Source of the DNA: an uncultured Bacilli bacterium
GTDB taxonomy: Bacteria; Bacillota_I; Bacilli_A; RF39; UBA660
Direction of reading: 5' to 3'
Length of the DNA: 64,000 nucleotides
NCBI GenBank assembly: GCA_944371995.1
Contig: CALVYD010000005.1
Span: 4,844 to 68,843 of the forward strand
Numbering within the stretch: position 1 is the first letter of the stretch; every line of letters starts with the position of its first letter. Under the pieces are notes generated by a model. It was given only the letters and a program-made list of their open reading frames with translations. It made no database searches and was not told the origin of the DNA. Made by a program: the position numbers and the translations under genes. Shown here in pieces: positions 2,311-55,435 of this stretch.

Positions 2311-2311
2311 T

Positions 2312-7851: not shown

Positions 7852-7884
7852 TTGACAAATGTAATCAGAAGGGAAGTGTACAAT
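7852..7884 (+). promoter_or_regulatory. Putative sigma-A promoter of megapilin A (TTGACA-N21-TACAAT, over-long spacer)
   Basis: ttgaca at 7852-7857 and tacaat at 7879-7884. Homologous to the promoter upstream of the paralog at 46363-46392, which has an 18-nt spacer. Confidence 0.4.
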
Positions 7885-38480: not shown

Positions 38481-38481
38481 T

Positions 38482-38499: not shown

Positions 38500-38544
38500 T
38501 TTACTTTTTCTATTTCATGGTATAGTAAATTAGGAGGATATGAT

Positions 38545-39576
38545 ATGACAAATTTAGATATTGATTACATTAATACAAAATTATTAGAAAAGGGTGATAG
38601 ACCATTTAAATTGGTTGACTTAGAATATCCAGAAGTTAGAACGGATGGTCATCATTTATTGGATAAAGAGAATAATCCTGTTGGAACAAAAGGTGATATG
38701 TATGCGAAAGTAATGATGGATAAATTGCTTAGAGAAGGTTGCTATGATGAAAATCCCCGTCCTAAATATGAAACAGATGGAAAACCAGCGAATACATTAT
38801 CTTTAAATAATCCTGGTTTATTTACCTATGATATTTCTAAAGGAGAGTCTCCAATGATAACACTGCGACCTATTGCAGTAAAAAAGAGTATTGGTGAAGT
38901 TCTTTGGATTTATCAAGATGCTACTACAGATTTAGAGGTTTTAAAAAATAAATATGGTGTTACCTGGTGGGATGCCTGGGATTTAAAAGATGATAATGGC
39001 ATCTATTTACGTAATATTGGTTCTACGTATGGATCTATTATTTCTCATTATGAGCAGATGAAAAAACTGATCCAAGATTTAAAAGAAAATCCTGATGGTA
39101 GACGACATATTATTGATATGTGGCAGCTAGAAGATTTTAAGAAGCCACATGGATTGAAACCTTGTGCTTATTCTACGGTTTGGAATGTTAGACATGGTAG
39201 AGATGGTGTGGATTATTTGGATATGAAATTGATACAAAGATCTAGTGATTTCTTAGTTGCGGGATGTATCAATCAAATGCAATATCTATCTTTAATGCAA
39301 ATGGTAGCGCAAGCAACAGGATATCAACCAGGTACTTTTAGCTGGGACATTCAAAACGTACAGATATATGATAGACATATTGCTCAGGCAGTAGAACAGC
39401 TTAGAAGAGAACCTATTACTTGTTTTGATGGTGTCCATCCAGAACCTTATTTAGAATTAAATCCTGATATTCATGATTTTTATGATTTTACTTTGAATGA
39501 TATTTCTGTTAAGAACTATCCACGTCAATTAATTAAGACTAAAAATCCTCAACAAAAATTTGATAAAGGAATTTAG
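38545..39576 (+). CDS. thyA: Thymidylate synthase (Bacillus subtilis ThyA-type)
   Basis: ATG 38545 follows RBS aggagg. GEVLWIYQ, GRRHIIDMW, LKPCAYSTVW (catalytic Cys), IQRSSD and the C-terminal NPDIHDFYDFTLNDISVKNY parallel B. subtilis ThyA. Confidence 0.85.
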   Translation: MTNLDIDYINTKLLEKGDRPFKLVDLEYPEVRTDGHHLLDKENNPVGTKGDMYAKVMMDKLLREGCYDENPRPKYETDGKPANTLSLNNPGLFTYDISKGESPMITLRPIAVKKSIGEVLWIYQDATTDLEVLKNKYGVTWWDAWDLKDDNGIYLRNIGSTYGSIISHYEQMKKLIQDLKENPDGRRHIIDMWQLEDFKKPHGLKPCAYSTVWNVRHGRDGVDYLDMKLIQRSSDFLVAGCINQMQYLSLMQMVAQATGYQPGTFSWDIQNVQIYDRHIAQAVEQLRREPITCFDGVHPEPYLELNPDIHDFYDFTLNDISVKNYPRQLIKTKNPQQKFDKGI

Positions 39577-39578
39577 TT

Positions 39579-40064
39579 ATGAAAAATGTTACGATGATTG
39601 CAGCAGTTGGTAAGAATTTAGAATTAGGAAAAGATAATGATTTGATTTGGCGCTTTAAGGAGGATATATCTTTCTTTAGAAAACACACGATTCATAAACC
39701 TATTATTCTGGGAAGAAAAACATTAGATTCTTTACCAGGGTTATTACCAGAAAGACAACACATTGTTTTGACACGCAGTTTAGAACAATTTCCTGATTCT
39801 GTATTAGTGATGCATTCTATAGAAGAACTACTTCCTTATATTGAGCAACATGAAGAAGAGTTTATGGTCATCGGTGGAGCTAGTGTTTATCGGCAAATGT
39901 TGCCTTATGCTGATACGATGTTACTTACGGAAGTAGATGCAGAAAGTGATGCTGATGTTTATTTTCCTTCTTTTAAAGAAAAAGATTGGGATAGTACCAT
40001 TCTTAGTAAACAAGAAGAAAAGGGAATTTCTTATAAGCATTTAGTTTATACAAGAAAAAAATAA
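39579..40064 (+). CDS. folA: Dihydrofolate reductase
   Basis: MIAAVGKNLELGKDNDLIWR..D..FF...T..KPIILGRKT DHFR signature. Located directly after thyA. Confidence 0.9.
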   Translation: MKNVTMIAAVGKNLELGKDNDLIWRFKEDISFFRKHTIHKPIILGRKTLDSLPGLLPERQHIVLTRSLEQFPDSVLVMHSIEELLPYIEQHEEEFMVIGGASVYRQMLPYADTMLLTEVDAESDADVYFPSFKEKDWDSTILSKQEEKGISYKHLVYTRKK

Positions 40065-40085
40065 AGAGACTTCGGTCTCTTTTTA
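40063..40085. terminator. Bidirectional terminator between folA and rnhC
   Basis: Stem aaagagac / gtctcttt with a ttcg tetraloop, flanked by A- and T-runs. Confidence 0.8.
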
Positions 40086-40994
40086 GTATATCAACGTATG
40101 TAAGATTCTATCTGTGTTCTTAAAATTAACTTTGGCAATTTCTTTTAGTTTTTCTTCGCCATATTTTTCTACTACTTCTTCTCCAATTTCATCTACATCA
40201 CGTCCAGCACCTTTTGGTAGTGGAATATGAATAGAGTCACATAATTTATCAAACTCTTTTAAGAAGATATATCTACTTATGATGGACGCACTAGCAACTG
40301 CCAAGTTTTTATCCTCAGCTTTTGTCATAAAGGTAATGCCTCGTTGAATATTAGGAACACTATTTAAATATTCGTAATATCTATTTTCTCTAGCAAACTC
40401 ATCTACAACAATATAGTCAACCTCTGGTTTTTCTTCCGTCATCAACTGATATAATACTTTATTATGAAGAATTGCTTTTATTTTATTCATATTAATATCT
40501 TTAGTATATTTTTCATTATATTCTTGATTTGTCAAAATCATACTACGATACTTTACAATCTTAATTAACTCTGGAGTAATCTTCTTTATTTTTTCATCAG
40601 TAATCTTTTTAGAGTCTCCAACACCTAATTTTTCAAGACGTTCCACATCTTCTTTCTTTACATAAGCAGCAGTAACTACAATAGGACCAAAATAATCCCC
40701 GGTACCAACTTCATCAGATCCAACTGAAGAACAGTTATGATATTTTTCATCTTTCTTTTTTTGTTCTTCTTTTTTCTCTTTAGTATTATCTAAAACCGTT
40801 CCCCATAAAGCCGCATCTACATCAGCACTAGTCCCTTGAAACATTGCTTTTCCAGACTCATATAAGGTAATTACCGTATCTTCTTCTTGCGCTTGGAAAA
40901 TAGCATAAGGTATTTTTTTATCTCTTACTTTGTCTTTATAATATTCAATCATTTTTTGCTTTGTCTCTTCATTTACTTTAATAACGATATTCAT
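40083..40994 (-). CDS. rnhC: Ribonuclease HIII
   Basis: N-terminal TBP-like domain (..ITLYESGKAMFQGTSA..) and catalytic GSDEVGTGDYFGPIVVTAAYV. Confidence 0.88.
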   Translation of the reverse strand: MNIVIKVNEETKQKMIEYYKDKVRDKKIPYAIFQAQEEDTVITLYESGKAMFQGTSADVDAALWGTVLDNTKEKKEEQKKKDEKYHNCSSVGSDEVGTGDYFGPIVVTAAYVKKEDVERLEKLGVGDSKKITDEKIKKITPELIKIVKYRSMILTNQEYNEKYTKDINMNKIKAILHNKVLYQLMTEEKPEVDYIVVDEFARENRYYEYLNSVPNIQRGITFMTKAEDKNLAVASASIISRYIFLKEFDKLCDSIHIPLPKGAGRDVDEIGEEVVEKYGEEKLKEIAKVNFKNTDRILHTLIY

Positions 40995-41027
40995 GTTTCC
41001 ACCTCTAATTTATTGTATCAAATTACC

Positions 41028-42368
41028 TTAGGAAAGTCTATTTTTATTAGGGTAAGAAATTATTAAAAAAGTTTTTTTCTTTTGTAAGACATCATCACTT
41101 GTTTTAATAATTTCTTCTTGATATTCGTGCTCGACATATCTTTTCTTTTGAAAATGTTCCTCATCTTTATAAATAGTACCTGTTTTAGTTAAAGAAAAAG
41201 AATGTATCTTTTCTTCCTGCTTTAAAAATCTGGTTAATGCGATAAAACTTTCTACATAAAACTCTTTTATCTCTTCTTTAGTTTTTCCATCTTTAATATA
41301 AATAGGCCAGCTATAATAATCATAATAATAAGGCTGATATCTACCACGAAGCTTATCTTCATCTATAATATCACTTAATAGTTCTCTTTGTTCTACTTCT
41401 TCTAATTCATATAGCTTTTTCGTATCAATAGCAACAACATCATCTTTTACATGCTCTATCATCATAAATATACTAACAAAGTATGACTGATTTAATATTT
41501 CATCATAAGTACGTTCATAATATCCTCTTTGCTTTTTAGGAATGTCTTTATAACGATTAAGCTTATGGATGACAGATAGTTTTTCTTCTTCTGTAAATTT
41601 ATCACTAGAAAGTATTGCAAGAGTAAAATTATGATAGGGATTTTTTTCTAAGAAGTATTCTTTTGCTTTTGGATGAAATTTTTCTTTAGGTGTTTTCATA
41701 ATATAATCGGCTAAAAAATCTTTTCTTCCAAATTTGATATCCAAAGGATAAGGAAGATAATGCCCGTAACTACTTTCTTCTGAATAGGTAAAAATTTGAT
41801 CCATAATTTGCTCATAAACTGGTACTAATTCTGCTATTTTCTCTTTTGCTAAAGAAAGCGACTCTAAATAATTGAAACGATGATAGGAACAAATATAAAA
41901 GGGTAGTTGTTCATTATCAAAATATAAGACAGAAAGATATTCCAAGAAATTTTTATTTTTTGCTTGTTTTTGCCAAAAATTTAAAGAAAAAACAGCTTCT
42001 TGATCTAAAATTTGACTCGTATATGAATTATGTAATGGTTTGATAATTTTATCCATGACTGACTTTATAAATATCTCTTGTTCTTCTTCATCTAAATCAA
42101 TATTAACTTCTTCTATAATATAGTGAAGAAATTTTTCTTCCAGTGGAGTAACCATGACCTCTTGTTCTTCATAATCTTTTAATATTTTTTCAATAAATTC
42201 TTTTTTCTCTATCTCAATAAGACTCATTTTATTAAAAATAGAAGCTTCACCATACATATCTAGATATTTTGAAATACGACGAACAATTCCTAAAGCAATC
42301 ACTTCATTATTATTAAGATGTTCTTGAAAATTATTTAATTTCTGCATAATACTCGTTTTCATATTCAT
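41028..42368 (-). CDS. Cytoplasmic orphan protein (about 446 aa)
   Basis: An AAGGAG RBS inside the track ORF favours the Met at 42368 (MNMKTSIMQ..). No recognisable domain. Confidence 0.65.
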   Translation of the reverse strand: MNMKTSIMQKLNNFQEHLNNNEVIALGIVRRISKYLDMYGEASIFNKMSLIEIEKKEFIEKILKDYEEQEVMVTPLEEKFLHYIIEEVNIDLDEEEQEIFIKSVMDKIIKPLHNSYTSQILDQEAVFSLNFWQKQAKNKNFLEYLSVLYFDNEQLPFYICSYHRFNYLESLSLAKEKIAELVPVYEQIMDQIFTYSEESSYGHYLPYPLDIKFGRKDFLADYIMKTPKEKFHPKAKEYFLEKNPYHNFTLAILSSDKFTEEEKLSVIHKLNRYKDIPKKQRGYYERTYDEILNQSYFVSIFMMIEHVKDDVVAIDTKKLYELEEVEQRELLSDIIDEDKLRGRYQPYYYDYYSWPIYIKDGKTKEEIKEFYVESFIALTRFLKQEEKIHSFSLTKTGTIYKDEEHFQKKRYVEHEYQEEIIKTSDDVLQKKKTFLIISYPNKNRLS

Positions 42369-42471
42369 TTGACGCTCCTTAGACATTTTTATCTATCTTA
42401 TCATTTTTTTAAACAATTTTATAGAAATTTTTAGTCTTTTTTTCTATAATATATTATAAGGAGTTGAAGTT

Positions 42472-43194
42472 ATGACTATCAATATTTTAGATGTTGCAAT
42501 TATATTAATTTTGATAATGTTTGCCATTCTGGGATTTAAAAGAGGTGCCATTAAAGAAATTGTTTCTTTAGTTGGTATTATTGCTGTATTTGTTATTTCT
42601 TTTCTATTAAAAGGAGTAATAGGTAATCTGCTTTGTAAGTTTTTACCATTCTTTGATTTTGCAGGTAACTTACAAGGTGTAACAGTATTAAATATTTTAC
42701 TATACCAGCTAATTGCATTTATTATCATATATAGTTTCCTATTTAGTATTTATCTATTTATTGTTAAAATATCTAGTGGAATTCAAAAACTAGTACATAT
42801 GACAATTATCTTATGGCTTCCATCAAAAATCATTGGTGCACTGGTTGCCTTGATAACAGGATATGTAATCACTTTCGTAGTATTACTTGCATTATTGATA
42901 CCTTTAAAAGACACTAATATTTTTAAAGAAAGTAAAATAGCAAATTCTATTGTTTATAATAGTCCTATATTATCTTCAAGTTCTGAAGGAATTAGTAAAT
43001 CTATAAACGAAATTTATGAATTAGGTGAGGATTTGTCCAAAGGAGAAATTAGTAAAAATGAAGCAAACTTAGAAACTATGGATGTATTCTTAAAATATAA
43101 TATTGTAAGTCCTAAAACAGCACGACAATTAATTGCCTTAGATAAATTAAAAGATATTGACGGACTAGAAAAAGTAATAGAAAAATATGAATAA
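42472..43194 (+). CDS. cvpA: CvpA-family membrane protein
   Basis: INILDVAIILILIMFAILGFKRGAIKEIVSLVGIIAVF is a typical CvpA N-terminus. Four TM segments. Its position next to rnhC matches Bacillus yshB. Confidence 0.8.
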   Translation: MTINILDVAIILILIMFAILGFKRGAIKEIVSLVGIIAVFVISFLLKGVIGNLLCKFLPFFDFAGNLQGVTVLNILLYQLIAFIIIYSFLFSIYLFIVKISSGIQKLVHMTIILWLPSKIIGALVALITGYVITFVVLLALLIPLKDTNIFKESKIANSIVYNSPILSSSSEGISKSINEIYELGEDLSKGEISKNEANLETMDVFLKYNIVSPKTARQLIALDKLKDIDGLEKVIEKYE

Positions 43195-43250
43195 GTGATA
43201 AAAAGATATGATATGATAAATAATATATAAAGAAAGGAAGATAAAATAAT

Positions 43251-43547
43251 ATGAATTATATAAAAAATGAAGAAGAATTTAATGAGGTAATAAAGAAAGA
43301 TAAAGTAGTGATTGATTTTTATGCAGAATGGTGTGGACCATGTAAAATGTTAAGTCCAATATTAGATAAGGTTAGTAAAGAAATGAACTTAGATACTTAT
43401 AAAGTAAATGTAGATGAAGTAGAAGATGTTGCAAGACAATATGGAATTATGTCTATTCCTACAGTTATGATTTTTGAAAAAGGAAAGATGACAAAGAAAA
43501 ACGTAGGATTTATGGATGATGCAGAGTTAAGAGAGTTTGTAAAATAA
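43251..43547 (+). CDS. trxA: Thioredoxin
   Basis: WCGPCK active site in a 98-aa product. Confidence 0.93.
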   Translation: MNYIKNEEEFNEVIKKDKVVIDFYAEWCGPCKMLSPILDKVSKEMNLDTYKVNVDEVEDVARQYGIMSIPTVMIFEKGKMTKKNVGFMDDAELREFVK

Positions 43548-43637
43548 CTCTTTTTTCTTTTGTTAGAAAGAAAAAAACTCTTTGCTTTTAATTCAATTGT
43601 GTTATACTTAAAGTAAATAGAGAATAGGAGGCAATAA

Positions 43638-46259
43638 ATGAAATACGTCTATTTATTTACTGAAGGCAGTAAAGATATGAGAAATCTATTAGGAGGAAAA
43701 GGTGCAAACCTAGCAGAAATGACTAATATAGGATTACCTGTTCCTAGAGGATTTACAGTAACTACAGAAGCTTGTACAAGTTATTATGATAATAACAGAG
43801 AGCTATCTGATGAAATTATGCAGCAAATCGATGAGAAAATCGAAGAGCTAGAAAAAATTACTGGAAAGACACTAGGAGATAGAAAAAATCCATTATTAGT
43901 ATCTGTGCGAAGTGGAGCACGTGCTAGTATGCCTGGTATGATGGATACCATATTAAACCTAGGAATGAATGATGATGTAGCAGTAGGATTTAGTGAAGTT
44001 ACGAATAATAAACGCTTTGTTTATGATTCATATCGTCGTTTTATCCAAATGTTTGCTGATGTTGTTATGGAATTTCCAAAATCTTCTTTTGAAAGAAAAT
44101 TTGATGAGATAAAGAAGGAAAAGGGAGTAGAACTTGATACTGAACTTACAGCAGAAGATTTAGAAGAAGTAGTTAAGATTTATAAAGAGGAATACATGCG
44201 CCTTGCTGGCAGTGAATTTCCTCAAGATCCAAAAGAACAATTAATGGCTGCCGTAAAAGCAGTATTTAGAAGTTGGATGAACGATAGAGCAATCACTTAT
44301 CGTAGATTAAATGATATTCCAAGTAGCTGGGGAACCGCTGTTAATGTTCAAGAAATGGTATATGGTAATAGAGGAGAAACTTCTGGTACTGGAGTTGCTT
44401 TCACTAGAAACCCTGCTACAGGAGAAAATCACTTATTTGGTGAATACTTAATGAATGCTCAAGGAGAAGATGTTGTTGCTGGTATTAGAACGCCTCAATC
44501 TATTGATACATTAAAAGAAGTAATGCCAGAATGTTATGAAGAATTCCAAAAGATTTGTAAAACTCTAGAAAATCACTATAAAGATATGCAAGATATGGAG
44601 TTTACGATTGAAGATGGAAAACTATTTATGCTTCAGACAAGAAATGGTAAACGTACCGCAACCGCAGCTTTAAAGATAGCAGTTGATATGGTAGAAGAAG
44701 GTATGATTACAAAAGAAGAAGCCTTATTAAAAGTGGACCCTAAACAACTAGACCAATTACTTCATCCGATGTTTGATGAAGAAAGCCTAAAGAAAGCAGA
44801 ATGTGTAGCAGAAGGTCTTGCTGCATCGCCTGGTGCTGCAACAGGTAAGATAGCTTTTACTGCCGAAGACGTTATTCGTATGCATAACGATGGAGAAAAA
44901 GATATTATTTTAGTTAGATTAGAAACATCTCCTGAGGATATTGAAGGAATGAATCTAGCTCATGGGGTTTTAACTCTTCGTGGAGGTATGACATCTCATG
45001 CAGCTGTTGTTGCTCGTGGTATGGGAACTTGTTGTGTATCTGGTTGTGGAGACTTAGTAATTGATGAAGAAGCAAAAACATTAACATTAAAAGATGGACG
45101 TATTTTAAAAGAAGAAGATTATATTAGTTTAGATGGTAGTACAGGTAAAGTTTATGCAGAACAAGTAAAAACAGTAGATGCTAGTATTACTGGAAATTTT
45201 GAAACATTTATGGACTGGGCTGATGAATATAGAGTACTAGAAGTTCGTGCTAATGCCGATACACCAAGAGATGCAGCTCAGGCAAGAAAATTTGGAGCAG
45301 AAGGAATCGGGCTTTGCCGTACAGAGCATATGTTCTTCGATGAAGAAAGAATATTTAACTTCCGTAAAATGATTACTGCACTAGATGTAGAATCAAGAGA
45401 AGCAGCTTTAGAAAAAATATTACCTTATCAAAGAGAAGACTTTGAAGGTTTATTTAAAGCAATGGATGGAAAATGTGTTATTATTCGTTTCCTAGATCCA
45501 CCATTACATGAATTCTTACCAAAGACAGAAGAAGAAATGAGACCACTTGCAGAAAGTCTAGGAATTACTTATGAAACCTTGAAAAATAAAGTAGATTCTC
45601 TAAAAGAATTTAACCCTATGATGGGACATCGTGGATGCCGTTTAGCAGTGACTTATCCAGAGATTGCTAGAATGCAAACAAGAGCTGTAATTGAAGCTGC
45701 AATTAATGTTCAAAAAGAAGGCGTTACGATTCACCCTGAAATTATGATTCCACTTGTTGGAGCAGTAAAAGAATTACAATATGTTAAAAAGATTGTAGTA
45801 GATACAGCAAAAGAAGTAATGGATCAAGCCGGCGTTACAGTAGATTACAAAGTAGGTACAATGATTGAAATACCAAGAGCAGCACTTTTAGCTGATAAGA
45901 TTGCTGAAGAAGCAGAATTCTTTAGTTTTGGTACCAATGATTTAACACAAATGACTTTTGGTTATTCTAGAGATGATGCTTCTAAATTCTTAGCAGACTA
46001 CTATCAAAAAGGAATACTAGACCAAGACCCTTTTGCATCTATTGATCAAGATGGTGTTGGAAAATTAATAGAGATTGCCGCAACTCTTGGAAGAGAAGCA
46101 AGACCAGATTTAGAACTTGGTATTTGTGGTGAACATGGAGGAGATCCAAAGAGTATTGATTTCTGTCATAGAGTGGGATTAAACTATGTATCATGCTCTC
46201 CATTTAGAGTACCAGTAGCACGTCTTGCCGCTGCACAAGCTGCAATTAATAATAAATAA
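43638..46259 (+). CDS. ppdK: Pyruvate, phosphate dikinase
   Basis: The 873-aa product has an ATP-grasp N-terminus (LGGKGANLAEM), the phosphohistidine motif GGMTSHAAVVARGMG and a PEP-utilising C-terminus with ICGEHGGDP. Confidence 0.95.
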   Translation: MKYVYLFTEGSKDMRNLLGGKGANLAEMTNIGLPVPRGFTVTTEACTSYYDNNRELSDEIMQQIDEKIEELEKITGKTLGDRKNPLLVSVRSGARASMPGMMDTILNLGMNDDVAVGFSEVTNNKRFVYDSYRRFIQMFADVVMEFPKSSFERKFDEIKKEKGVELDTELTAEDLEEVVKIYKEEYMRLAGSEFPQDPKEQLMAAVKAVFRSWMNDRAITYRRLNDIPSSWGTAVNVQEMVYGNRGETSGTGVAFTRNPATGENHLFGEYLMNAQGEDVVAGIRTPQSIDTLKEVMPECYEEFQKICKTLENHYKDMQDMEFTIEDGKLFMLQTRNGKRTATAALKIAVDMVEEGMITKEEALLKVDPKQLDQLLHPMFDEESLKKAECVAEGLAASPGAATGKIAFTAEDVIRMHNDGEKDIILVRLETSPEDIEGMNLAHGVLTLRGGMTSHAAVVARGMGTCCVSGCGDLVIDEEAKTLTLKDGRILKEEDYISLDGSTGKVYAEQVKTVDASITGNFETFMDWADEYRVLEVRANADTPRDAAQARKFGAEGIGLCRTEHMFFDEERIFNFRKMITALDVESREAALEKILPYQREDFEGLFKAMDGKCVIIRFLDPPLHEFLPKTEEEMRPLAESLGITYETLKNKVDSLKEFNPMMGHRGCRLAVTYPEIARMQTRAVIEAAINVQKEGVTIHPEIMIPLVGAVKELQYVKKIVVDTAKEVMDQAGVTVDYKVGTMIEIPRAALLADKIAEEAEFFSFGTNDLTQMTFGYSRDDASKFLADYYQKGILDQDPFASIDQDGVGKLIEIAATLGREARPDLELGICGEHGGDPKSIDFCHRVGLNYVSCSPFRVPVARLAAAQAAINNK

Positions 46260-46287
46260 AAGTCTTATTAAAACATAAAAAACAAGT

Positions 46288-46318
46288 AAAAATTGGCTAA
46301 TTTATTAGTCAATTTTTT
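46288..46318 (+). terminator. Rho-independent terminator after ppdK
   Basis: Stem ttggctaa / ttagtcaa (one G-T pair), then T6. Confidence 0.6.
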
Positions 46319-46362
46319 AAATTTAATTTATATAAGGAACAATCTTTTTTTGCAGATAATCA

Positions 46363-46392
46363 TTGACAAGTATCCCGATGGAAAGGTATAAT
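46363..46392 (+). promoter_or_regulatory. Sigma-A promoter of megapilin B
   Basis: TTGACA at 46363-46368, 18-nt spacer, TATAAT at 46387-46392. Confidence 0.65.
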
Positions 46393-46423
46393 CTTATTAG
46401 AATAGAAATAATGGTGATAGAGT

Positions 46424-49400
46424 ATGAGAATAGGAAAAAAGTTAAAGAATAGAAATGGTTTTACGCTAATTGAATTGATTGCGGTAATCGCTATTCTGGG
46501 AATTATTTTGCTACTAGCATTGCCACAAGTTTCTAAGATTCAACAGGCCAACAAAAATAGAAAGTATGAAGCTTATGAACTGTCTATAGAACGTGGTGCT
46601 AAACTATATACAGATTCGAATGCCAGAGATATGTTTGGTAATAATAATTCTGGTTGTGTAACGATTCCATATTCTGTTTTGAAATCAAGTAATGTTATCA
46701 AAGATTTTAGTGATCCTGATATTACTTGTTCTAACGATTCTGAAACTTATGTTAGAATTAGAAAGATTAACGATGATTATCGCTATGATGTCGCCCTAAC
46801 TTGTAGACAAGAGGGAGATGTTGTCTACCAAAAAGAAATAGATACAACCTTTACTTGTACGAATTCTCCAGATACGGAAGTACCAATAATTGAAGCTAGT
46901 CCGTCATCAAAATCTAACTGGGTAAAATCAGAAGATTTAGAAATAACGATTAAAATATCAGATGCAAGTGGACTAAATAAAAATACAAGTATTAAATATT
47001 ACTGGGTAAAGACTTCTGGAGAAAAAGTAGGAAAAGAATATACTCATAACTATAATAATAAAAAAGGTGTAACAAAAGTAAGCTATAAAATCCCTAAAAA
47101 GAATATGATAGATACTACTGGACAATATTATTTAGTAGTAGAACCTTATCGAACAACAACGGCAAATGGAGTACAAGATGTATTAGGAAATGACAGAATA
47201 ACAGAAGAGCGATTTGGAATATATAAAATTGATAATACGAAACCAAGTTGCGGTGTAGCCGATGGAGAAAAAACAAAATGGACAAATACAGATTTTACCA
47301 TTACGCAACATTGTGGTGATGGAGAAAGTGGCTGTGTAAAAGAAAGTTATAGTAAGAAGTTCACGGAATCGACTACTACCCATACTTTTACTATAAAAGA
47401 TAAAGCAGGAAATACCAATAAATGTAAAGTAAATGTATATTTGGATAAAGATAAACCAACATGTGGAAAAACAAAAGGAGAAAGTACAGAGTGGACTAAC
47501 AAAGATAGAACCATCAGTGTGGAATGTGAAGAAAAAGAGTTTAGTAAATGTAAGAAAGATGTATTTGAAGTGACATTCTCAACAGAGGGAAAGAAAGATA
47601 ATATAGAAATACAAGATAATGCAGGAAACAAAACACAATGTTCTGTAAACAAATATATTGATAAGACACCACCAAAATGTCCAACCATTAGTTCAACAAC
47701 ACCAGCTGGAAAATGGACTAATAAAGATATTACTTATACGTTTAAATTTACAGATGATACAGCTAAATATATATGGTATACCAAAGTAGGAGATAATGAC
47801 TGGAAAGAATGGAGTACCAATAAACCGAGTGTTACTCAAAAATCTATCACAGCAGAAGGATACCGAAAAGTAGGAGTACGAGTATATGACATTGCAGGAA
47901 ATCACCAATTATGTGGAACAGATGCGACATATAATATAGATAAATCAAAACCAACATGTGGAACAGCATCAGGATCAAGTACAACATGGATAAATAAAGA
48001 TAGATATATTAGTCAAGGATGTAACGATAGTTTGAGTGGATGTAGCGCACCAACATTTAATAAGACATTCACAACAGAAGGAACAACTGACAAAATATCA
48101 ATAGCAGATAAAGCAGGAAATTCCAATACCTGTACAGTAAATAAATATATAGATAAAACTAGGCCGACATTAGGGTATAAATTGACACAAGATACAACGG
48201 GTCAACCTTATAAACCAGGAACATGGACTAGAAATGGAGTGTTCCGTGATTTGTATCCAGCAGATAAAGGTGGAAGCGGAGTGCTAGAAACCCAATATAA
48301 TCTTGGAGGTGGATGGGATCACGAACCAAATTTAAGCAATTTTTATATAGGTGAAGGTAATCAAACGGGAAGGTATCGAGTAAAAGATAATGCCGGAAAT
48401 TACAGTGATGAAGTAGTTTTACATTTTATGATTGACTGGACCGCTCCGAACTGTGTAAGTAGTGGAGGAAGTAGTAACGCAACAATAGGACCAGTAACAA
48501 TCACAGGAATATGTAGCGATGGCATTAGTGGATGTACAGGAAATGTATCAAGAACATTCACTAACGATATGAATGAATGGGTATCACCAGGAACTGTTAG
48601 AGACAATGCTGGAAATACGAGAGAATGTCCAACACAACAAGTAAATATAAATACAAGACCAAATAAACCAACCATACAAAATCCAACAAATGAAAAATGG
48701 GTAAACTATAACTTTGCTTTAACGGTAAAGACCACATCACCAAGTAATATCATAGGATATTGGCAATATAGTTATGACAATAGTAACTGGGTAACCTATT
48801 CTAATTCCGCAACAAATAACTTTGTAACTACAAACTTTGAAAGAGAAAGAAACCAATTAGCATATATTAGAGTATGTAGTAAATCGGGTTTATGTTCAGA
48901 ATCCGCATCAACTTATATTAGAATAGATAAAACGAAACCAACGTTAGGATATAAATTGACTGATGATACTACAGGAGCAAATTATATTTCAGGGACATGG
49001 TCAAGACACGGATTGTATCGTGATTTATATCCAAAGGATAATGCCAGCGGAGTAAAAGAAGTGCAGTATAATGATAGTAATAGTGGATGGTATAATGAAC
49101 CAAATTGGAATCATTTCTGGATACGCACTGAGAGAATTAGAACAAGTAAATATCGAGTATATGATTATGCAGGAAATGTTAGTGATGAAGTAACAATAGA
49201 GTATAAGATTGATTGGACTCCACCGGTTGTAGAAAGTTTTGATTATGAATATACCGCTCCTGATCCGATCTGTAATACGAATCCATTAAAATACGCTGAT
49301 CCTACTGTTTTGATTTTTAGAGTAGATGTATTTAATGTTAGAGCGTATGATCCGCAGGTTAATAGTTCTCATAGTGGTATCGATCATTTTCAAATTGTTA

Positions 49401-49729
49401 TTGCACCTACATACTGGATTTATAAAAATGATGATACAACAGCAAAGGCACAGTGTACAGAGGATAGTTGCTATGATAACGCTTACCGTTACAAATATGT
49501 AAATGTTAATAATGTGCAAAGTATAGGAAATGGATATTATACCTTTCCTAGAACCAATGCTACAGCACAAATGAACAATCTTAATTACGGAAATACGAAA
49601 GCATTTTGTGCTGATTGGTGTATTAATGTTATTGCTGTAGATAAAGCTGGTAATGGTCAACAATCACCTACTTCCTGGGGAACAGGGACTGAATGTCCTC
49701 AAAAATATAAAGATGGTCGAGGATATTAA
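46424..49729 (+). CDS. Giant prepilin-type N-terminal domain protein (megapilin B), paralog of 7915-11643
   Basis: Leader MRIGKKLKNRNG/FTLIELIAVIAILGIILLLALPQ. The first ~560 nt are nearly identical to copy A. Module order is X 47939-48151, Z 48152-48433, Y 48434-48925, Z 48926-49210, then the C-terminal domain. Confidence 0.85.
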   Translation: MRIGKKLKNRNGFTLIELIAVIAILGIILLLALPQVSKIQQANKNRKYEAYELSIERGAKLYTDSNARDMFGNNNSGCVTIPYSVLKSSNVIKDFSDPDITCSNDSETYVRIRKINDDYRYDVALTCRQEGDVVYQKEIDTTFTCTNSPDTEVPIIEASPSSKSNWVKSEDLEITIKISDASGLNKNTSIKYYWVKTSGEKVGKEYTHNYNNKKGVTKVSYKIPKKNMIDTTGQYYLVVEPYRTTTANGVQDVLGNDRITEERFGIYKIDNTKPSCGVADGEKTKWTNTDFTITQHCGDGESGCVKESYSKKFTESTTTHTFTIKDKAGNTNKCKVNVYLDKDKPTCGKTKGESTEWTNKDRTISVECEEKEFSKCKKDVFEVTFSTEGKKDNIEIQDNAGNKTQCSVNKYIDKTPPKCPTISSTTPAGKWTNKDITYTFKFTDDTAKYIWYTKVGDNDWKEWSTNKPSVTQKSITAEGYRKVGVRVYDIAGNHQLCGTDATYNIDKSKPTCGTASGSSTTWINKDRYISQGCNDSLSGCSAPTFNKTFTTEGTTDKISIADKAGNSNTCTVNKYIDKTRPTLGYKLTQDTTGQPYKPGTWTRNGVFRDLYPADKGGSGVLETQYNLGGGWDHEPNLSNFYIGEGNQTGRYRVKDNAGNYSDEVVLHFMIDWTAPNCVSSGGSSNATIGPVTITGICSDGISGCTGNVSRTFTNDMNEWVSPGTVRDNAGNTRECPTQQVNINTRPNKPTIQNPTNEKWVNYNFALTVKTTSPSNIIGYWQYSYDNSNWVTYSNSATNNFVTTNFERERNQLAYIRVCSKSGLCSESASTYIRIDKTKPTLGYKLTDDTTGANYISGTWSRHGLYRDLYPKDNASGVKEVQYNDSNSGWYNEPNWNHFWIRTERIRTSKYRVYDYAGNVSDEVTIEYKIDWTPPVVESFDYEYTAPDPICNTNPLKYADPTVLIFRVDVFNVRAYDPQVNSSHSGIDHFQIVIAPTYWIYKNDDTTAKAQCTEDSCYDNAYRYKYVNVNNVQSIGNGYYTFPRTNATAQMNNLNYGNTKAFCADWCINVIAVDKAGNGQQSPTSWGTGTECPQKYKDGRGY

Positions 49730-49732
49730 AAT

Positions 49733-49768
49733 AAGCTTCATTAGAAATTTCTAATGAAGTTTTTATTT
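49733..49768 (+). terminator. Hairpin terminator of megapilin B (homologous to 11648-11684)
   Basis: Stem aagcttcattag / ctaatgaagttt, then a T-run. Confidence 0.7.
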
Positions 49769-49983
49769 GTTATGAAAATATAGAAATAATAATTACAGTG
49801 ATAAATTTAAAACCATATTAGTTATCTAATACATATGTAATGTTAGAATATCTCAAACAAATAATAGCAACAATCCATGTAAGTAAAAAATTATAAGTAA
49901 ACCTTTCGTAAAATACAATCTCTTACGTAGAAATTATATTTTATTTTTGCTATAATAATAAAAGAAGATAAAGAGGTGATTTA

Positions 49984-50877
49984 ATGAAAGTAGTTTGTGT
50001 TGGTCATTCTACTTATGATACAACGTTACCAATGGATTTTTATCCTACAGAAAATTTAAAATATAGAATTCATGAACATATGGAATGTGGAGGAGGTCCT
50101 GCTGCAAACGGGGCTTATTTGTTAGCTAAATGGGGCATGGATACCACTATCATGTGTGCCGTAGGTGATGACTATTACGGGCAACAAATAATCCATGAGT
50201 TTGAACGAGTTCATGCTTCTACAGAATGTATAGAAGTACATCCCGATTTTATGACTTCTAGTAGCTATATTATTGCCAATCGTTCCAATGGTAGTAGAAC
50301 AATTATCACATCAAAAAAACCACCTATTCGTAAATTAAATCATAATGGCAATATTCATGCGGATTTAATTTTAGTAGATGGAGAACATCCTGAAACAGCA
50401 GAAGCTGTATTACGAGCAAATCCCAATGCTATTAGCGTCATCGATGCAGGAAGACTAACGGACGATACGAAACGTTTAGGAAAACTAGTAACATATGTTG
50501 TTTGTTCTAAAACATTTGCCGAAGAGTTTTCAGGTAGAAAAATTGATGTTAATGATATGAGTAGTTTAATTTACTGCTATGACAGATTAAAAGAATTCTT
50601 TCAAAACACTGTAGTAATTACACTAGAAGATAAAGGAAGTTTTACAAAACTAGACGATTATGAAATACTACCAACTGTCAAAGTACAAGCTGTAGACTCT
50701 ACTGGTGCAGGAGATATCTTCCATGGAGCATTTACTTATTTCATAGGTAACGGATATTCTTTAAGAGATACAATTCATTATGCATCAATTACATCTGCAA
50801 TCTCCATCACAAGAGTAGGTGCAAGATGTTCGATTCCAGACTTAAAAGAAGTACTTGAATATGATGAACTTATATAA
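49984..50877 (+). CDS. PfkB-family carbohydrate/nucleoside kinase
   Basis: Ribokinase-like fold motifs GGGPAANGA and DSTGAGDIFHGAF. Confidence 0.8.
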   Translation: MKVVCVGHSTYDTTLPMDFYPTENLKYRIHEHMECGGGPAANGAYLLAKWGMDTTIMCAVGDDYYGQQIIHEFERVHASTECIEVHPDFMTSSSYIIANRSNGSRTIITSKKPPIRKLNHNGNIHADLILVDGEHPETAEAVLRANPNAISVIDAGRLTDDTKRLGKLVTYVVCSKTFAEEFSGRKIDVNDMSSLIYCYDRLKEFFQNTVVITLEDKGSFTKLDDYEILPTVKVQAVDSTGAGDIFHGAFTYFIGNGYSLRDTIHYASITSAISITRVGARCSIPDLKEVLEYDELI

Positions 50878-51118
50878 TCGTTATCCTGTCTTAGATTTAC
50901 ATGGATTCGATCGTGACTATGCTAGGATTATGATTAATGATTTTATTATGGATTGTTATCAAATGAGATGCGAAAAAGCAGTAATTATTCATGGTATTGG
51001 AACTGGCATACTTCGTAAAACTACCAAAGAAGTACTAAGCAAAAATAAATATGTAGAAAATGCAAAGATAGATATATTTAATGAAGGCGAGACTATTGTA
51101 GAGCTAAAAAGGCGTTAG
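50855..51118 (+). CDS. Smr-domain protein
   Basis: LDLHGFDRDYA...VIIHGIGTGILRK Smr signature. It overlaps the kinase gene by 23 nt. Confidence 0.75.
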   Translation: MNMMNLYNRYPVLDLHGFDRDYARIMINDFIMDCYQMRCEKAVIIHGIGTGILRKTTKEVLSKNKYVENAKIDIFNEGETIVELKRR

Positions 51119-51197
51119 TCTTGACTTTTTTTGTCTTTAGTGGTAGTATAATAGCGATAAAAAAGAGGTGAGTGAAAAAGGAAAAGAGGGAGGCTAT

Positions 51198-51716
51198 ATG
51201 TATAGTGAAAAATATGAACAACGTGGTTTTTCATGTAAACCTTTTTTATTAAGAATAATATTATTAATAGTACTTGTTTTTTTCATCATAGATATATTAC
51301 CAAACTTAGTAAAACCTACTATAATCACAAATAGTAAAAATAAGGATGTCTATCTTTCACCATTAACTTCAAAAGTATATGCTAACAATACAGAAAAAAT
51401 GAAGAAAGCAGCCCTTACTTATTATACAGAAGAAAAACTTCCTACTAATATTGGAGATTCAAGCACATTAACATTACAAGATATGAAAAAGCAAAACTTA
51501 ATCACTTCTTTAACGGTTGAAAACAACAATACTTATGATGAAACCGAAAGTTATATAAAACTAACAAAAATAGGACAAGATTATCTATTAAAAATAAATT
51601 TAAAAGATAATAAGCAAGAAAATTATCTTTTAGTACACCTAGGATTTTATACACATTGTGATAATAATATATGTGAGAATAAGATAAGTAAAACAAAAAA
51701 AACAGTAAAATTATGA
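51198..51716 (+). CDS. Single-pass membrane protein of unknown function
   Basis: RBS agagggagg, then ATG 51198. One TM (FLLRIILLIVLVFFIIDILP) and an extracytoplasmic ~120-aa domain with a C-terminal Cys pair. Confidence 0.6.
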   Translation: MYSEKYEQRGFSCKPFLLRIILLIVLVFFIIDILPNLVKPTIITNSKNKDVYLSPLTSKVYANNTEKMKKAALTYYTEEKLPTNIGDSSTLTLQDMKKQNLITSLTVENNNTYDETESYIKLTKIGQDYLLKINLKDNKQENYLLVHLGFYTHCDNNICENKISKTKKTVKL

Positions 51717-51759
51717 TATATAAAAATATATGATATATTGTAATACAAGGGGGATAATT

Positions 51760-54144
51760 ATGAAAAAGAAAAAAGTTCTAAATATTGTAAAATTTTCAGT
51801 TAATGACGTTGTAGGTAGCACGACAACAAAGCGTACTCAGGCAGCAGTTTTCTACGATGATGGTAGTGTAGAAATGCTTCCTATGGAGGATGCTGTTGAA
51901 CTATGCAAAAGGGAAAACATTAAAATGAAACAAACAACACCTGAAAAATTAGAAGCAAATTTCCAGAAATATCGCGGTGTTACTACTCCTAAAAAGAAGA
52001 AAAAGGAACAGGAAAATACTTCTCAAGAAGAAACAACACTTATTAAAAAAATAAAAAATAAATTGAAGACAATAAAAAACTTCATTTTAAAACCATTTAT
52101 GTTTATATATGAAAAAACCATTGTAAAAGCTTGTGAATATGCAACGCTTCATATTTTACAAAGAAAAAAATTAAAAGCGTTGCAAAAAAATAACGAAAAT
52201 GCAGAATCAAACACAAAGAAAAAACTCTTCCAAAAATCTAAAAAGAAAAAAAGTGAAAATGTAAATAACAACAAGAATAAGAATAAGTTTTTCAGTAAAA
52301 GAACAAAATCTAAGAATAAAAAAGCAAAAAATAAAACCAGAAAAAGGAAAAGATTTTTTACCAGAGTTAAAGCAGCTATCTTTGCAGCAGTACTAATGGT
52401 TGCAGGAGCATTCGGAATAAGTTCATGTCAAAAAAAGGAACTTTCCCTAAATCCACAATCAAAAGTAGAATCTGAAGCGGATATTTTAAATGATCTTTCT
52501 AAAGCAGATATTATTAATTTAATAAAAGAATATAAACTTTCTGCAGACCAAGTTTCTCAGTTAATTCGTGATGGAAAGATTACAAACGATGATTTTAAGC
52601 ATTTATCTGTAGAACAATTATTAAATATTACAAGTAGCAATATACAACAACAAGAAATGGAAAAAATATCTAATTTCTTAAATGGTTATAATATTACGTT
52701 TGCCAAAAATTGCTTAGATAAAGAAGCAGGAGAGATACGTACAGTACTTACTTATACCGAAGCAAATGCTCTTAATTCAGCATATAATAATTATTCTAAA
52801 GAAGATATTCAAGCAATATTTAATGGTTCTGAAGCTATCGATTTTACGAAGGCCTATAAAGAAGGCTATTTACAATTACTAGGAGCTTTTGTTCTAGCAA
52901 CAGATAATAATCCAGTACAATTAGATAAATTAATCAATGATGAAAATGGAAAAACTTTTGTTAAAGACTACGAGACTACTTTCTACGAATGTAAAAATCT
53001 TACAGGAGAAGATCAAGTTAAAGCAGTAACTGAACTATATAAAAGAGTAGTAAATGACTTTGCTATTACCTCAACTAATCAAGGAACAATAGAGTCATAT
53101 AAATTAGCAGTTGCTCCAATAGTAGTAGCAGCTACATCTTTATTTGATGATTTAGGAATCGATCAAACATTAGTTGATCAAGTAACTACATATTTTAATG
53201 AAGTAGGATTATACAGTAAAGCAACAGAAAACTTTAACATGGCCAATGCATTAAATGGCACCGAAGATTCAGAAAATCCTACCTATGAGCAATATAAAGA
53301 TGCTGAAATTAACAGCTTAGAAGATGAAAGTGCATATTATAAAAGTGATAAAAATCGTGATTTAAGTCAATTAGATAAGTTTAAATCATTAGTAAATTGG
53401 CAATTTAATTTAGATGCCAATGGTGATTTGATCATAGGAAACACGCTAGGAGAAAGTATAGTGTTGCAACCAGAAGAAGCACAAGAAAAAAAGGAAGATG
53501 AACCAGTATTAACTGAAGCAACCATTGTAGAACCAGTGAAAGAACCTGCAGTAGTTAGAGAAAGTACGCAATCTTATACAACTGCAACTGCTAGTTATAC
53601 TACCCTAAGTAATAATGATTATAGCTATGATAATGCAGATAATTTAGAATCATCTCCTATTCCAGAAACTCCAACAGCAACCTACAATAATACCTCTGAT
53701 GAAGTAGCTAATACAGAGGGAGTAGAAGTGACTTACAATCCAGAAGAAGAATTAGATAATTTCCAAGTAGGAGAAACAAACGGCCAGACATTTTTTGAAT
53801 ACGATGAGCCTAGTGAAGAAGTAGAGAATACAGATTCTAATGAAAGTCAGGCTACTGGTAACACAGATACGACAGAAGATACAGTATCAGAAGAAACGAA
53901 TACCGAAAATAATAGTAATAGTGATAACACTATTGAAGAAGAGTATAGTATCACTCAAATGCCAGACAGTAATCGTATAATTATAGAATATGAAGAGACA
54001 GTAGAAGAAACACCAGTAGAAGAAGTACAAACTGAACAAGAATTAACAAATGAACAAAAGGCTGAAGCTATTGTAAATGATATGGCAGAAAATCCAGAAA
54101 ATTATGCAGAAGAAGCAGAAGAAGTATTTGTATATACAAAATAG
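51760..54144 (+). CDS. Large membrane protein: very basic cytoplasmic N-domain, one TM, extracellular domain and acidic tail
   Basis: RBS aggggga, then ATG 51760. Lys/Arg-rich residues ~90-210, TM AAIFAAVLMVAGAFGI, and a Glu/Thr/Asn-rich C-terminus. Confidence 0.7.
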   Translation: MKKKKVLNIVKFSVNDVVGSTTTKRTQAAVFYDDGSVEMLPMEDAVELCKRENIKMKQTTPEKLEANFQKYRGVTTPKKKKKEQENTSQEETTLIKKIKNKLKTIKNFILKPFMFIYEKTIVKACEYATLHILQRKKLKALQKNNENAESNTKKKLFQKSKKKKSENVNNNKNKNKFFSKRTKSKNKKAKNKTRKRKRFFTRVKAAIFAAVLMVAGAFGISSCQKKELSLNPQSKVESEADILNDLSKADIINLIKEYKLSADQVSQLIRDGKITNDDFKHLSVEQLLNITSSNIQQQEMEKISNFLNGYNITFAKNCLDKEAGEIRTVLTYTEANALNSAYNNYSKEDIQAIFNGSEAIDFTKAYKEGYLQLLGAFVLATDNNPVQLDKLINDENGKTFVKDYETTFYECKNLTGEDQVKAVTELYKRVVNDFAITSTNQGTIESYKLAVAPIVVAATSLFDDLGIDQTLVDQVTTYFNEVGLYSKATENFNMANALNGTEDSENPTYEQYKDAEINSLEDESAYYKSDKNRDLSQLDKFKSLVNWQFNLDANGDLIIGNTLGESIVLQPEEAQEKKEDEPVLTEATIVEPVKEPAVVRESTQSYTTATASYTTLSNNDYSYDNADNLESSPIPETPTATYNNTSDEVANTEGVEVTYNPEEELDNFQVGETNGQTFFEYDEPSEEVENTDSNESQATGNTDTTEDTVSEETNTENNSNSDNTIEEEYSITQMPDSNRIIIEYEETVEETPVEEVQTEQELTNEQKAEAIVNDMAENPENYAEEAEEVFVYTK

Positions 54145-54155
54145 AAAATGATACT

Positions 54156-54181
54156 AAAGATGACAAAAGTCATCTTTTTAA
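54156..54181 (+). terminator. Rho-independent terminator
   Basis: Stem aaagatgac / gtcatcttt, loop aaaa, T-rich tail. Confidence 0.75.
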
Positions 54182-54235
54182 TATATTAGGAATTTGCTCC
54201 TCAAAATGCGAATTTGAAAACTTGATAAAAAATAG

Positions 54236-54264
54236 TTGACATACGAACAAACGTATTATATAGT
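54236..54264 (+). promoter_or_regulatory. Sigma-A promoter inside the IS left end
   Basis: TTGACA at 54236-54241, 17-nt spacer, TATAGT at 54259-54264. Confidence 0.6.
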
Positions 54265-54286
54265 GTTCTCATCAGGAGGGGATATT

Positions 54287-55435
54287 ATGTATAAATCTTA
54301 TCGGTTTCGTTTGTATCCTACAACTAATCAAATAGAGTTAATTCACAAAACATTTGGTTGTACTAGAGTAGTATATAATCATTATTTAGAAAAGCAAAAA
54401 GCACTTTATGATGAAGGAAAAGATTCTTTATCTTGTTTTGATATGATAAAAGATTTAAAAAACTTGCAAGTAGAACGTCCTTATTTAAAGGAAGTAGATT
54501 CTTGTAGCCTAAGATGTAGTTTATTTAATTTAGATGACGCTTTTAAAAGATGGTATAAAGGACAAGGAGAATATCCTAAGTTTAAGGGAAAATATAACTC
54601 TAAAAGAAGTTATAGAACAAACTGTATAAGTAGTACTTATAAAGATAAAACATATCAAAGTATAGAAGTAGATTTAAAAAGACACATAATAAAACTTCCT
54701 AAGTTAAAAGAAGTAAGTATAAAAGGATATCGAGATTTAGAGTATTTGCCTGGAAGAATTATCAACGCTACTATAGAACAAGCGTCTACTTTAAAATATT
54801 ATGTTAGTGTGTTAGTAGAAGAGGATGATGTATATACAAAATTAAAACCTAGAAAAATAATAGGAATTGATCTAGGTATTAAGGATATTGTAATTACAAG
54901 TGATAATGAAAAAATAGGAAATCCGAGACTAATAGAAAAGTATGAAAAAAGGATAAAAAGATGTTCTAGAGAATTGTCAAGAAGAGTAAAAGGAAGCAAT
55001 AATTATAATAAAACCAAAAAGAAACTAGCAGTACTACATCAAAAACTAAAGAATGCAAGAAGATATTTTATCCATCAAATAACTAAAAAACTGGTAATAG
55101 AAAATGATATCATAGTAACAGAAAGTCTAAAATTAAAGGACATGATAGAAGAAAAAAGATTATCTAAACAACTAACAAATGTAAGTCTAGGAGAGCTTTG
55201 TAGAGTCTTAGAATATAAAGCTAAGATATATGGAAAGAAATATATCAAAATAGATAGTTATTATCCAAGCAGTCAGGAGTGTAGCAGGTGTGGATATAAG
55301 AATGAGAAAGTAAAAGACTTAAGTGTTAGAAGTTGGATATGTCCAGAATGTGGAAGTTATCATGATAGAGATTATAATGCTAGTTATAATATTATGTTTG
55401 AAGGATTAAAGAAATATATGATGGAATTAAAATAG
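54287..55435 (+). CDS. tnpB: RNA-guided endonuclease TnpB (IS605 OrfB family)
   Basis: ATG 54287 follows aggagggg. N-terminal YRFRLYPT..Q...L...FG..R.VYN, RuvC D (IGIDLGIKD), E (VTESLKLKDM) and D (HDRDYNASYNI), plus a CSRCGY..CPECG zinc finger. The catalytic triad is intact. Confidence 0.92.
   Translation: MYKSYRFRLYPTTNQIELIHKTFGCTRVVYNHYLEKQKALYDEGKDSLSCFDMIKDLKNLQVERPYLKEVDSCSLRCSLFNLDDAFKRWYKGQGEYPKFKGKYNSKRSYRTNCISSTYKDKTYQSIEVDLKRHIIKLPKLKEVSIKGYRDLEYLPGRIINATIEQASTLKYYVSVLVEEDDVYTKLKPRKIIGIDLGIKDIVITSDNEKIGNPRLIEKYEKRIKRCSRELSRRVKGSNNYNKTKKKLAVLHQKLKNARRYFIHQITKKLVIENDIIVTESLKLKDMIEEKRLSKQLTNVSLGELCRVLEYKAKIYGKKYIKIDSYYPSSQECSRCGYKNEKVKDLSVRSWICPECGSYHDRDYNASYNIMFEGLKKYMMELK

Follow-up and report, generated by a model that had tools for sequence, protein, structure and literature searches.

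Paralogous cassettes for giant modular type IV pilins, as predicted from sequence and fold, exchange their 5' blocks in an uncultured Bacilli bacterium

The stretch of DNA analysed here, which we call the window, comprises 64,000 nt (G+C 30%) of contig CALVYD010000005.1 from an uncultured Bacilli bacterium and contains two open reading frames (ORFs) with prepilin leaders on the plus strand, referred to as megapilins A and B or copies A and B (Table 1). The two are full-length paralogues located 38.5 kb apart, and a six-frame scan of the window revealed no prepilin motifs besides theirs. The original prediction, made from the letters alone, had described B as a 1,101-residue paralogue with a prepilin leader; ORF and leader were both confirmed, the leader and mature start MRIGKKLKNRNG|FTLIELIAVIAILGIILLLALPQ constituting a type IV pilin signal with F1 and E5 of the mature protein. 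In a blastn comparison, positions 7852-9650 match 46363-48159 with 86.0% identity over 1,803 nt (E=0), while farther on the matches lie off the diagonal. The homology extends from the -35 hexamer to about 48 nt past the stop codon, just after a common terminator hairpin, and the flanks of A and B are mutually unrelated. They consist of housekeeping genes on the same strand as the pilin genes, with a RecD2 helicase and a helix-turn-helix (HTH) membrane protein next to copy A, and PPDK and a PfkB kinase next to copy B. Given these limits of homology and the unrelated flanks, what is repeated is an entire monocistronic cassette, as had been proposed when a promoter-gene-terminator unit was said to be duplicated. 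The two loci are paralogous, self-contained cassettes, each with its own sigma-70-type promoter, a short 5' untranslated region (UTR), a single gene and a terminator.

Between the -35 hexamer and the ATG, 51 of 63/61 nt match between the copies. Both copies have the -35 hexamer, -10 region and 5' UTR in common, in agreement with the earlier claim of a shared region, but the spacer differs (18 nt in B, 21 nt in A). As the longer spacer should weaken copy A, the two copies may be expressed unequally. Across the window copies and the related loci L001-L005 the spacer measures 16, 17, 18 or 21 nt, with hexamers and UTR conserved, and the UTR of about 30 nt with its GGTG-type ribosome-binding site (RBS) is conserved across seven loci. 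The terminator hairpin that had been noticed in both copies is real (Table 1), and the Z-type genes (named after their C-terminal domain) at loci L002 and L003 are followed by the same hairpin as copy B. The identical runs quoted earlier each occur once per copy (8017/46526, 8155/46664, 7882/46390, 11649/49733 and 11667/49751).

Both proteins score above the cut-offs of the N_methyl (PF07963) and TIGR02532 models, B reaching 29.9 bits (cut-off 21.2) and 29.1 bits (cut-off 16.3), and ComGC, ComGE and GspG-type models match A and B over the first 40-60 residues only. The leader and the alpha-1N segment align with the PDB sequences of solved pilins, which places mature residue 1 at F13; all 44 homologues compared retain F13 and E17 (mature E5), and G12 is retained with few exceptions. 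An AlphaFold2 model of residues 1-276 (44-row alignment; predicted local distance difference test score, pLDDT, 88) predicts a 57-residue helix at residues 15-71, a four-strand sheet within residues 76-137 (strands 76-82, 109-115, 118-129 and 132-137) and a separate beta-sandwich, which corresponds to module a, the one that follows. Judged by sequence and predicted fold, A and B are modular type IV pilins, and at the sequence level they fit the definitions of both a type IV pilin and a modular pilin. Neither A nor B contains an LPXTG motif, and with a class III signal at the N-terminus they do not qualify as sortase-anchored adhesins with immunoglobulin-like (Ig-like) repeats.

The pilin module (P) of about 150 residues is followed by units of 71-114 residues, which are delimited by a recurring '..IDKT.P.C' junction and amount to nine Ig-like modules in B and eleven in A. 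Modules b, c and e form one family (40-58% identical), of which g is a more distant relative. In Pfam the Ig-like modules show only weak similarity to Big_3_2, Big_13 and DUF7743, and module f2 of B passes the OmpL47-type domain NF047446 (42 bits, cut-off 40). The terminal Z domain is specific to this family; it has no PDB match at E<1e-3, and Foldseek returned only generic beta-sandwich matches for it (E>1e-3, template modelling score, TM, <0.3). It is also rare, as an exhaustive HMMER search found six clusters among 1.84 billion representative proteins.

Table 1. Features of copies A and B in the window (plus strand) and of small genes at related loci.
Feature	Position	Strand	Basis and remarks
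Promoter-like site of copy A, TTGACA-21-TACAAT	7852..7884	+	Spacer above optimal length; not called by consensus scan
Megapilin A coding sequence, 1,242 aa	7915..11643	+	ORF; modules P-a-b-c-d-e-g-h-e2-f-g2-h2-Z
Stretch of copy A that contains, as short patches, every one of the 39 differences from scaffold_631	8154..9543	+	0 differences elsewhere in window 1-21643 (21.6 kb)
Intrinsic terminator hairpin of copy A	11649..11678	+	-22.9 kcal/mol, z -7.8
Promoter of copy B, TTGACA-18-TATAAT	46363..46392	+	12/12 consensus, top score of region; -35 is the 5' homology edge with copy A and related loci
RBS GGTGA of copy B, 6 nt 5' of ATG, inside the conserved ~30-nt 5' UTR	46413..46417	+	Sequence reading
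Megapilin B coding sequence, 1,101 aa	46424..49729	+	ORF; modules P-a-b-c-d-e-f-g-h-f2-Z
Class III (prepilin) leader of B, MRIGKKLKNRNG; predicted cleavage after G12	46424..46459	+	Alignment with solved pilins
Pilin module of B: predicted alpha-1 helix (residues 15-71), four-strand sheet; four Cys	46460..46909	+	AlphaFold2 mean pLDDT 88
Stretch of copy B with all 212 differences from scaffold_631; conversion tract	46564..48163	+	0 differences elsewhere in window 38424-54307 (15.9 kb)
Ig-like modules a-e of B; with the pilin module, the 5' block collinear with copy A 7915-9663	46910..48172	+	Module map; 80-86% nt identity
Ig-like modules f, g, h, f2 of B; non-collinear with copy A	48173..49231	+	Module map
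Terminal Z domain of B, 165 aa, predicted beta-sandwich	49232..49726	+	AlphaFold2 pLDDT 80.5, predicted TM score 0.80
Intrinsic terminator hairpin of copy B, then T run	49733..49762	+	-14.6 kcal/mol, z -5.6
Small membrane-anchored protein genes after X/Y/W-type genes	L011 10611-11350; L004 12922-13605; L005 13411-14091; L012 4535-5284		

The divergence between A and B is not uniform along the genes but falls in steps. According to Nei-Gojobori estimates by region, the pilin module (92% nucleotide and 90% amino acid identity) has a synonymous divergence (dS) of 0.23 and a ratio of nonsynonymous to synonymous divergence (dN/dS) of 0.20; dS rises to 0.55-0.70 in modules a-e (80-86% nucleotide identity), 0.72-0.92 in g and h and 1.1-1.9 in f, and is about 1.5 in the Z domain (64% nucleotide, 52% amino acid identity). 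Expressed as amino acid identity per module, the values are 90% for P, 83% for a, 85% for b, 83% for c, 78% for d, 81% for e, 71% for g, 79% for h, 57% for f and 52% for Z. A max-chi-square breakpoint at gene nt 587 was reached in 0 of 500 permutations, and third-position differences (23/162 in the pilin module, 127/421 in modules a-e) separate the same two regions (Fisher p=5e-5). The first 560 nt or so had been called near-identical; their identity is indeed high (91.8%), but the term overstates it, the longest exact run common to A and B in the window being 55 nt. The estimate that the C-terminal 170 residues are about half identical was accurate (163-165 residues at 52-53%).

Since dN/dS lies between 0.12 and 0.33 everywhere, the gradient reflects segments that differ in age or origin, and not relaxed or positive selection in the distal part. 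Positive selection on the exposed part can be ruled out as the cause of the 3' divergence, as this region has saturated dS and a dN/dS of 0.19-0.29. The 3' halves of A and B also differ by module order as well as by substitutions, a feature that the original prediction had missed. Its view of an exposed part that diversified thus holds for the 3' difference as such but not for divergence in place under positive selection, in view of the module rearrangement here and the replacement of C-termini in related strains described below.

The origin of the 5' similarity becomes apparent from a near-identical strain, represented by scaffold_631 of ENA ERZ28616109, which bears both loci (L002 and L014) and which, like all comparison sequences used here, is a metagenome assembly. 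Over about 30.2 kb of flanking sequence the window and this scaffold are identical, whereas the two genes differ at 251 positions (39 + 212), which are confined to the stretches given in Table 1. In copy B, 208 of the 212 differences are also carried by the scaffold's own A copy, and the scaffold's A and B genes have in common an exact block of 1,580 nt (gene nt 103-1682), compared with a maximum of 55 nt in the window. The block of about 1.6 kb in the B gene of scaffold_631 is therefore a recent gene-conversion tract. Its ends fall in the conserved region coding for alpha-1N and at the end of collinearity in module e. Copy A tells of smaller events: 37 of its 39 alleles recur at the corresponding position in further members of the family, 23 of them match copy B, and the individual patches match different donors, namely copy B of the window, the L005 type and the L011 type. 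An independent assembly from a different study contains a 1,675-nt exact block between the genes at two loci (L003/L005). These data show that the collinear 5' 1.75 kb, which comprises the pilin module and modules a-e, undergoes frequent non-reciprocal exchange between paralogues, with tracts from tens of nucleotides to 1.6 kb. The suggestion that gene conversion homogenises the assembly end was correct as to conversion, as seen in scaffold_631, but too narrow in extent, as the whole collinear block is involved and not the pilin end alone.

Metagenome assembly could in principle have produced the duplication or the mosaic alleles as artefacts, and the exact repeats of 1.58-1.68 kb in scaffold_631 and L003/L005 do exceed typical short-read insert sizes, with unequal coverage of L003 (41x) and L005 (28x). 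A true B-type 5' half would, however, give its own unambiguous path in the assembly graph and not an A-type replacement, the scaffolds contain no N, and the A-like 5' half at the B locus is seen in many separate contigs. Within the window, copies that are 86% identical, have at most 55 identical nt in a row, differ in module order and have unrelated flanks make both collapse and false duplication implausible. Proteins identical to A and B of the window (P0173 and P0151, the latter a member of cluster P0001) lie together on one 74,270-bp public contig, and independent assemblies show each of the two loci again between the same neighbouring genes. Assembly error is thus a very improbable explanation of the overall pattern.

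Further alleles follow the same pattern. At the B locus, most alleles have f-g-h-f2-Z at 100% identity, combined with a P-e block of B type, A type or mixed type. In alleles of the A locus, the segment from g to Z is 94-100% identical and P-e 88-100%. A third allele group, the P0005 cluster with a Y-type C-terminus, whose representative sits after peptide deformylase in L005, likewise pairs a near-invariant 3' block with a mosaic 5' block. That paralogues differ most in the 3' part and strains differ at the common 5' block is the signature of inter-paralogue exchange. The proposed pattern of a constrained assembly end and a variable exposed end consequently describes the comparison between paralogues, but between strains at one locus it is the 3' part that is invariant and the 5' part that is polymorphic. 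In the lineage of L001 and L004, compared with window 36478-48472, the flanks are about 92% identical, modules a-e are 98-100% identical to copy B of the window and the pilin module is about 80% identical. This pattern indicates transfer of segments across lineages as well, the breakpoint again falling at the P/a junction. In L003, the B-locus-like gene P0001 is immediately preceded by a partial ORF (positions 1-1232) that represents the 3' end of a further megapilin and shows 85% identity to window 10406-11398, so that some strains bear tandem megapilin copies.

The distal domains are exchanged in a different manner. Between PPDK and PfkB, the B locus carries Z in the window, L003, L010 and L014, a 97-residue type X in L011 and a 180-residue type Y in L004, and a fourth type, W, is found in L012, which brings the alternative C-terminal domains to at least four. 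The X, Y and W genes are each directly followed by a small gene whose product has an N-terminal membrane anchor and no Pfam match (Table 1); Z-type genes have the terminator directly 3' and no such partner. This arrangement suggests that the small genes encode accessory proteins specific to the tip domain. As the alleles show, 3' blocks and C-terminal domains behave as locus- or allele-specific cassettes that are kept intact and are now and then swapped whole. We also considered whether the alternative C-termini belong to polymorphic toxins; Pfam gave just one marginal Imm1/HMBD match in a single distant member and none for X or Y.

Segmental, patchy and non-reciprocal transfer from several donors is also what programmed antigenic variation of the Neisseria pilE/pilS type would produce, in which one of the copies would be the expression site and the other copy, together with further ones, would serve largely as silent donors. 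The fact that every polymorphism between two otherwise identical strains falls in these genes would suit such a system, and so would the suboptimal 21-nt spacer of copy A beside the perfect promoter of copy B. Both copies are nevertheless complete, in frame and under purifying selection, with their own promoter-like site, RBS and terminator, and the six-frame scan of the window detected no truncated promoterless cassettes. Moreover, the part that varies is the base of the stalk and not the distal tip domain, and neither gene adjoins an invertible element, a recombinase or, in a scan that covered gene A only, tandem DNA repeats. We hence regard a silent-donor system as improbable. Phase variation by inversion was likewise rejected: no invertible promoter was found, nor flanking inverted repeats other than the terminators of neighbouring genes, whose AT-rich sequences make up the upstream regions of both pilin genes.

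A protein search returned 407 relatives of 600-1,534 residues, nearly all with N_methyl and all from metagenomes or metagenome-assembled genomes. The few that bear a name are annotated as 'prepilin-type N-terminal cleavage/methylation domain-containing protein' or 'type II secretion system protein', and their hosts are uncultured Bacilli, Candidatus Faecimonas and Mycoplasmatota. About 350 N-terminal residues are conserved among the relatives, and the C-termini are extremely diverse, many of them Cys-rich. At every locus examined the family genes are orphans amid housekeeping genes, and a 1.42-Mb contig that carries one relative has three paralogues in a span of 21 kb. The family is a large and unannotated one of orphan giant modular pilins of small-genome gut Bacilli, and a literature search found no published description of it, nor of a 'megapilin' or 'giant pilin'. 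Among individual members, the pilin scaffold of P0083, P0084 and P0104 bears repeats of thrombospondin type 1 (TSP1), a domain most familiar from animals; the C-terminus of P0004 shows a weak match to choline-binding repeats, and P0063 reaches 1,534 residues.

Taking architecture and recombination together, we propose, with a probability of about 70%, that the two cassettes encode giant modular type IV pilins with exchanging 5' blocks, which are displayed through machinery encoded elsewhere as alternative tip adhesins. A prepilin peptidase encoded elsewhere in the genome would cleave after G12, and the pilin module would then dock into a type 4 filament that is likewise built by machinery encoded elsewhere, with display most likely at the filament tip. 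The stalk of about ten Ig-like modules, roughly 35-40 nm if extended, would present Z as the ligand-binding tip, so that A and B could act as alternative tip adhesins with different Z specificities. The common 5' block might in this way be both a machine-compatibility element and a recombination substrate. As no pilus machinery lies within the window, we can only infer pilus display and adhesion, and with them the role as adhesin or antigen.

The same genes and the same recombination would also be compatible with a class III signal that serves as membrane anchor or export signal only, in which case the proteins would be wall-spanning, cell-anchored stalks and not subunits of an extended pilus. 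Parallels exist in the class III-signal sugar-binding proteins of archaea and in pseudopilus-dependent surface display. Such stalks would fit genes that at each locus examined stand alone, with no pilus machinery beside them, as well as the small size of the related genomes (see the 1.42-Mb contig above) and a protein mass of 120-135 kDa, which far exceeds that of any pilin shown to polymerise (the largest in a 2021 survey having 860 residues; PMC8179133). They fit less well with a full alpha-1 and beta-sheet pilin module kept under purifying selection (dN/dS 0.20), or with a mature E5 that is invariant in all 44 homologues. This residue of type IV pilins matters for filament docking, not for membrane anchoring. 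On balance, anchored stalks seem unlikely to us.

Several observations weigh against the proposal of exchanging pilins displayed as tip adhesins. Neither the 64-kb window nor the surroundings of family genes at the related loci examined (within 10 kb) contain a prepilin peptidase, an assembly ATPase, a platform protein or a short major pilin, and a Foldseek search with the N-terminal model matched the Ig-like module alone and returned no pilin structures. Adhesion is a guess from architecture, as neither structure nor sequence links Z to any protein of known function. Regarding the exchange, the direction of the 1.6-kb event is not proven, since it could have run from A to B in scaffold_631 or have brought sequence into the window strain from elsewhere. 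Exact 1.6-kb repeats are hard to assemble, so that a portion of the mosaics between closely related paralogues could stem from chimeric assembly paths. Conversion may also be a neutral by-product of similarity instead of a mechanism of variation.

The remainder of the window contains further genes of interest. Near copy A, positions 208-3043 encode a 700-residue surface protein with Listeria-Bacteroides repeats and a SpaA-type domain adjoining a sortase, which represents a second, unrelated display system. A TnpB/IS605 OrfB-type gene (OrfB_IS605, Cas12f1-like TNB domains) lies at 54236-55435, 4.5 kb 3' of copy B. The 630-residue product of 23371-25263 strongly matches the glycine-rich domain of ALK/LTK (PF12810, E=2e-32) and gives a weak match to ricin-type lectins. 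ORFs without Pfam match include one of 481 residues between gyrB and gyrA (16036-17481), which occupies the same place in scaffold_631 (L002 18122-19567), as well as the large ORFs at 51730-54144 (804 aa), 31908-34547 (879 aa) and 20160-21857 (565 aa).

More broadly, and only as a tentative suggestion that we would sooner doubt than assert, small-genome gut Bacilli might achieve high-frequency surface variation with scattered, individually expressed, full-length giant pilins that swap 5' segments and whole tips, some of them with cognate accessory genes. If so, combinatorial variants of stalk and tip would arise faster than point mutations accumulate, and the system, pilin-based and without silent cassettes, would be the counterpart of the variable adhesins of Mycoplasma, Neisseria and Helicobacter. 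The two genes hold every difference between two otherwise identical strains over about 37.5 kb of aligned sequence, and they offer a testable model of how uncultured reduced-genome gut bacteria diversify surfaces that bind hosts or partners, as well as material from nature in which homeologous gene conversion could be measured. In metagenomic work they call for caution, the 5' halves of this gene class being prone to mis-assembly and mis-clustering.

Modular pilins have only recently been seen as a route to new functions of type 4 filaments, and the known examples are single genes in pilus operons. A survey of more than 1,200 of them includes PilB (von Willebrand factor A module) and PilC (lectin module) of Streptococcus sanguinis, and a position at filament tips has been proposed (Raynaud et al., 2021, PMC8179133). 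The proteins described here resemble these in combining a class III signal peptide and a small pilin module with C-terminal extras, in their monoderm host and in their presumed role in adhesion at the tip. They differ in size, with 1,101 and 1,242 residues, relatives of up to 1,534 residues and 9-11 Ig-like modules plus a terminal domain, against an extreme of 860 residues in the survey; these module arrays are the longest found in our literature search. They also differ in being orphan, multi-copy genes outside a pil operon that recombine with each other, and in that most of their modules have no database signature.

In the Kil (Tad) pilus of Myxococcus xanthus, interchangeable tip complexes with the large pilin KilN are encoded at scattered loci (PMC12075869). 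Both systems have several paralogous large pilins encoded at separate loci, in which a conserved alpha-1N part for docking is joined to a variable domain on the exposed side, and alternative specificities of one filament are the proposed outcome. The Kil tips, however, are heterotrimers from three-gene clusters of a diderm predator, for which conversion between paralogues is not reported, whereas here single-gene cassettes of a gut monoderm are converted. As to the recombination itself, a close analogue is provided by babA, babB and babC of Helicobacter pylori, which are also full-length, adhesin-type paralogues at separate loci that undergo gene conversion via homologous segments, the chimeric allele at a given locus varying from strain to strain (PMC4552749). 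The bab products are outer-membrane beta-barrels of a diderm, while the present exchange concerns the 5' 1.75 kb of a type IV pilin scaffold.

In Neisseria, segments are transferred non-reciprocally between pilin copies from promoterless silent pilS donors to pilE, with an upstream sequence that forms a G-quadruplex and a small RNA as initiator. The megapilins share with this system the non-reciprocal segmental transfer between pilin copies and the concentration of polymorphism in the pilin gene, but have no silent promoterless cassettes: donor and recipient are complete, and the exchange includes the conserved N-terminal module and not only the exposed C-terminal region. The pilA allele groups of Pseudomonas aeruginosa, finally, possess group-specific accessory genes (tfpO, tfpW-Z), in a similar way as the X, Y and W types of related strains each have their own gene for a small membrane-anchored protein. 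In contrast to pilA, the two Z-type genes of the window have no partner, and the accessory proteins show no detectable homology to known families. Surface variation by exchange between paralogues is thus already known from other bacteria, and what these cassettes add is a very large, hitherto undescribed family of pilins.

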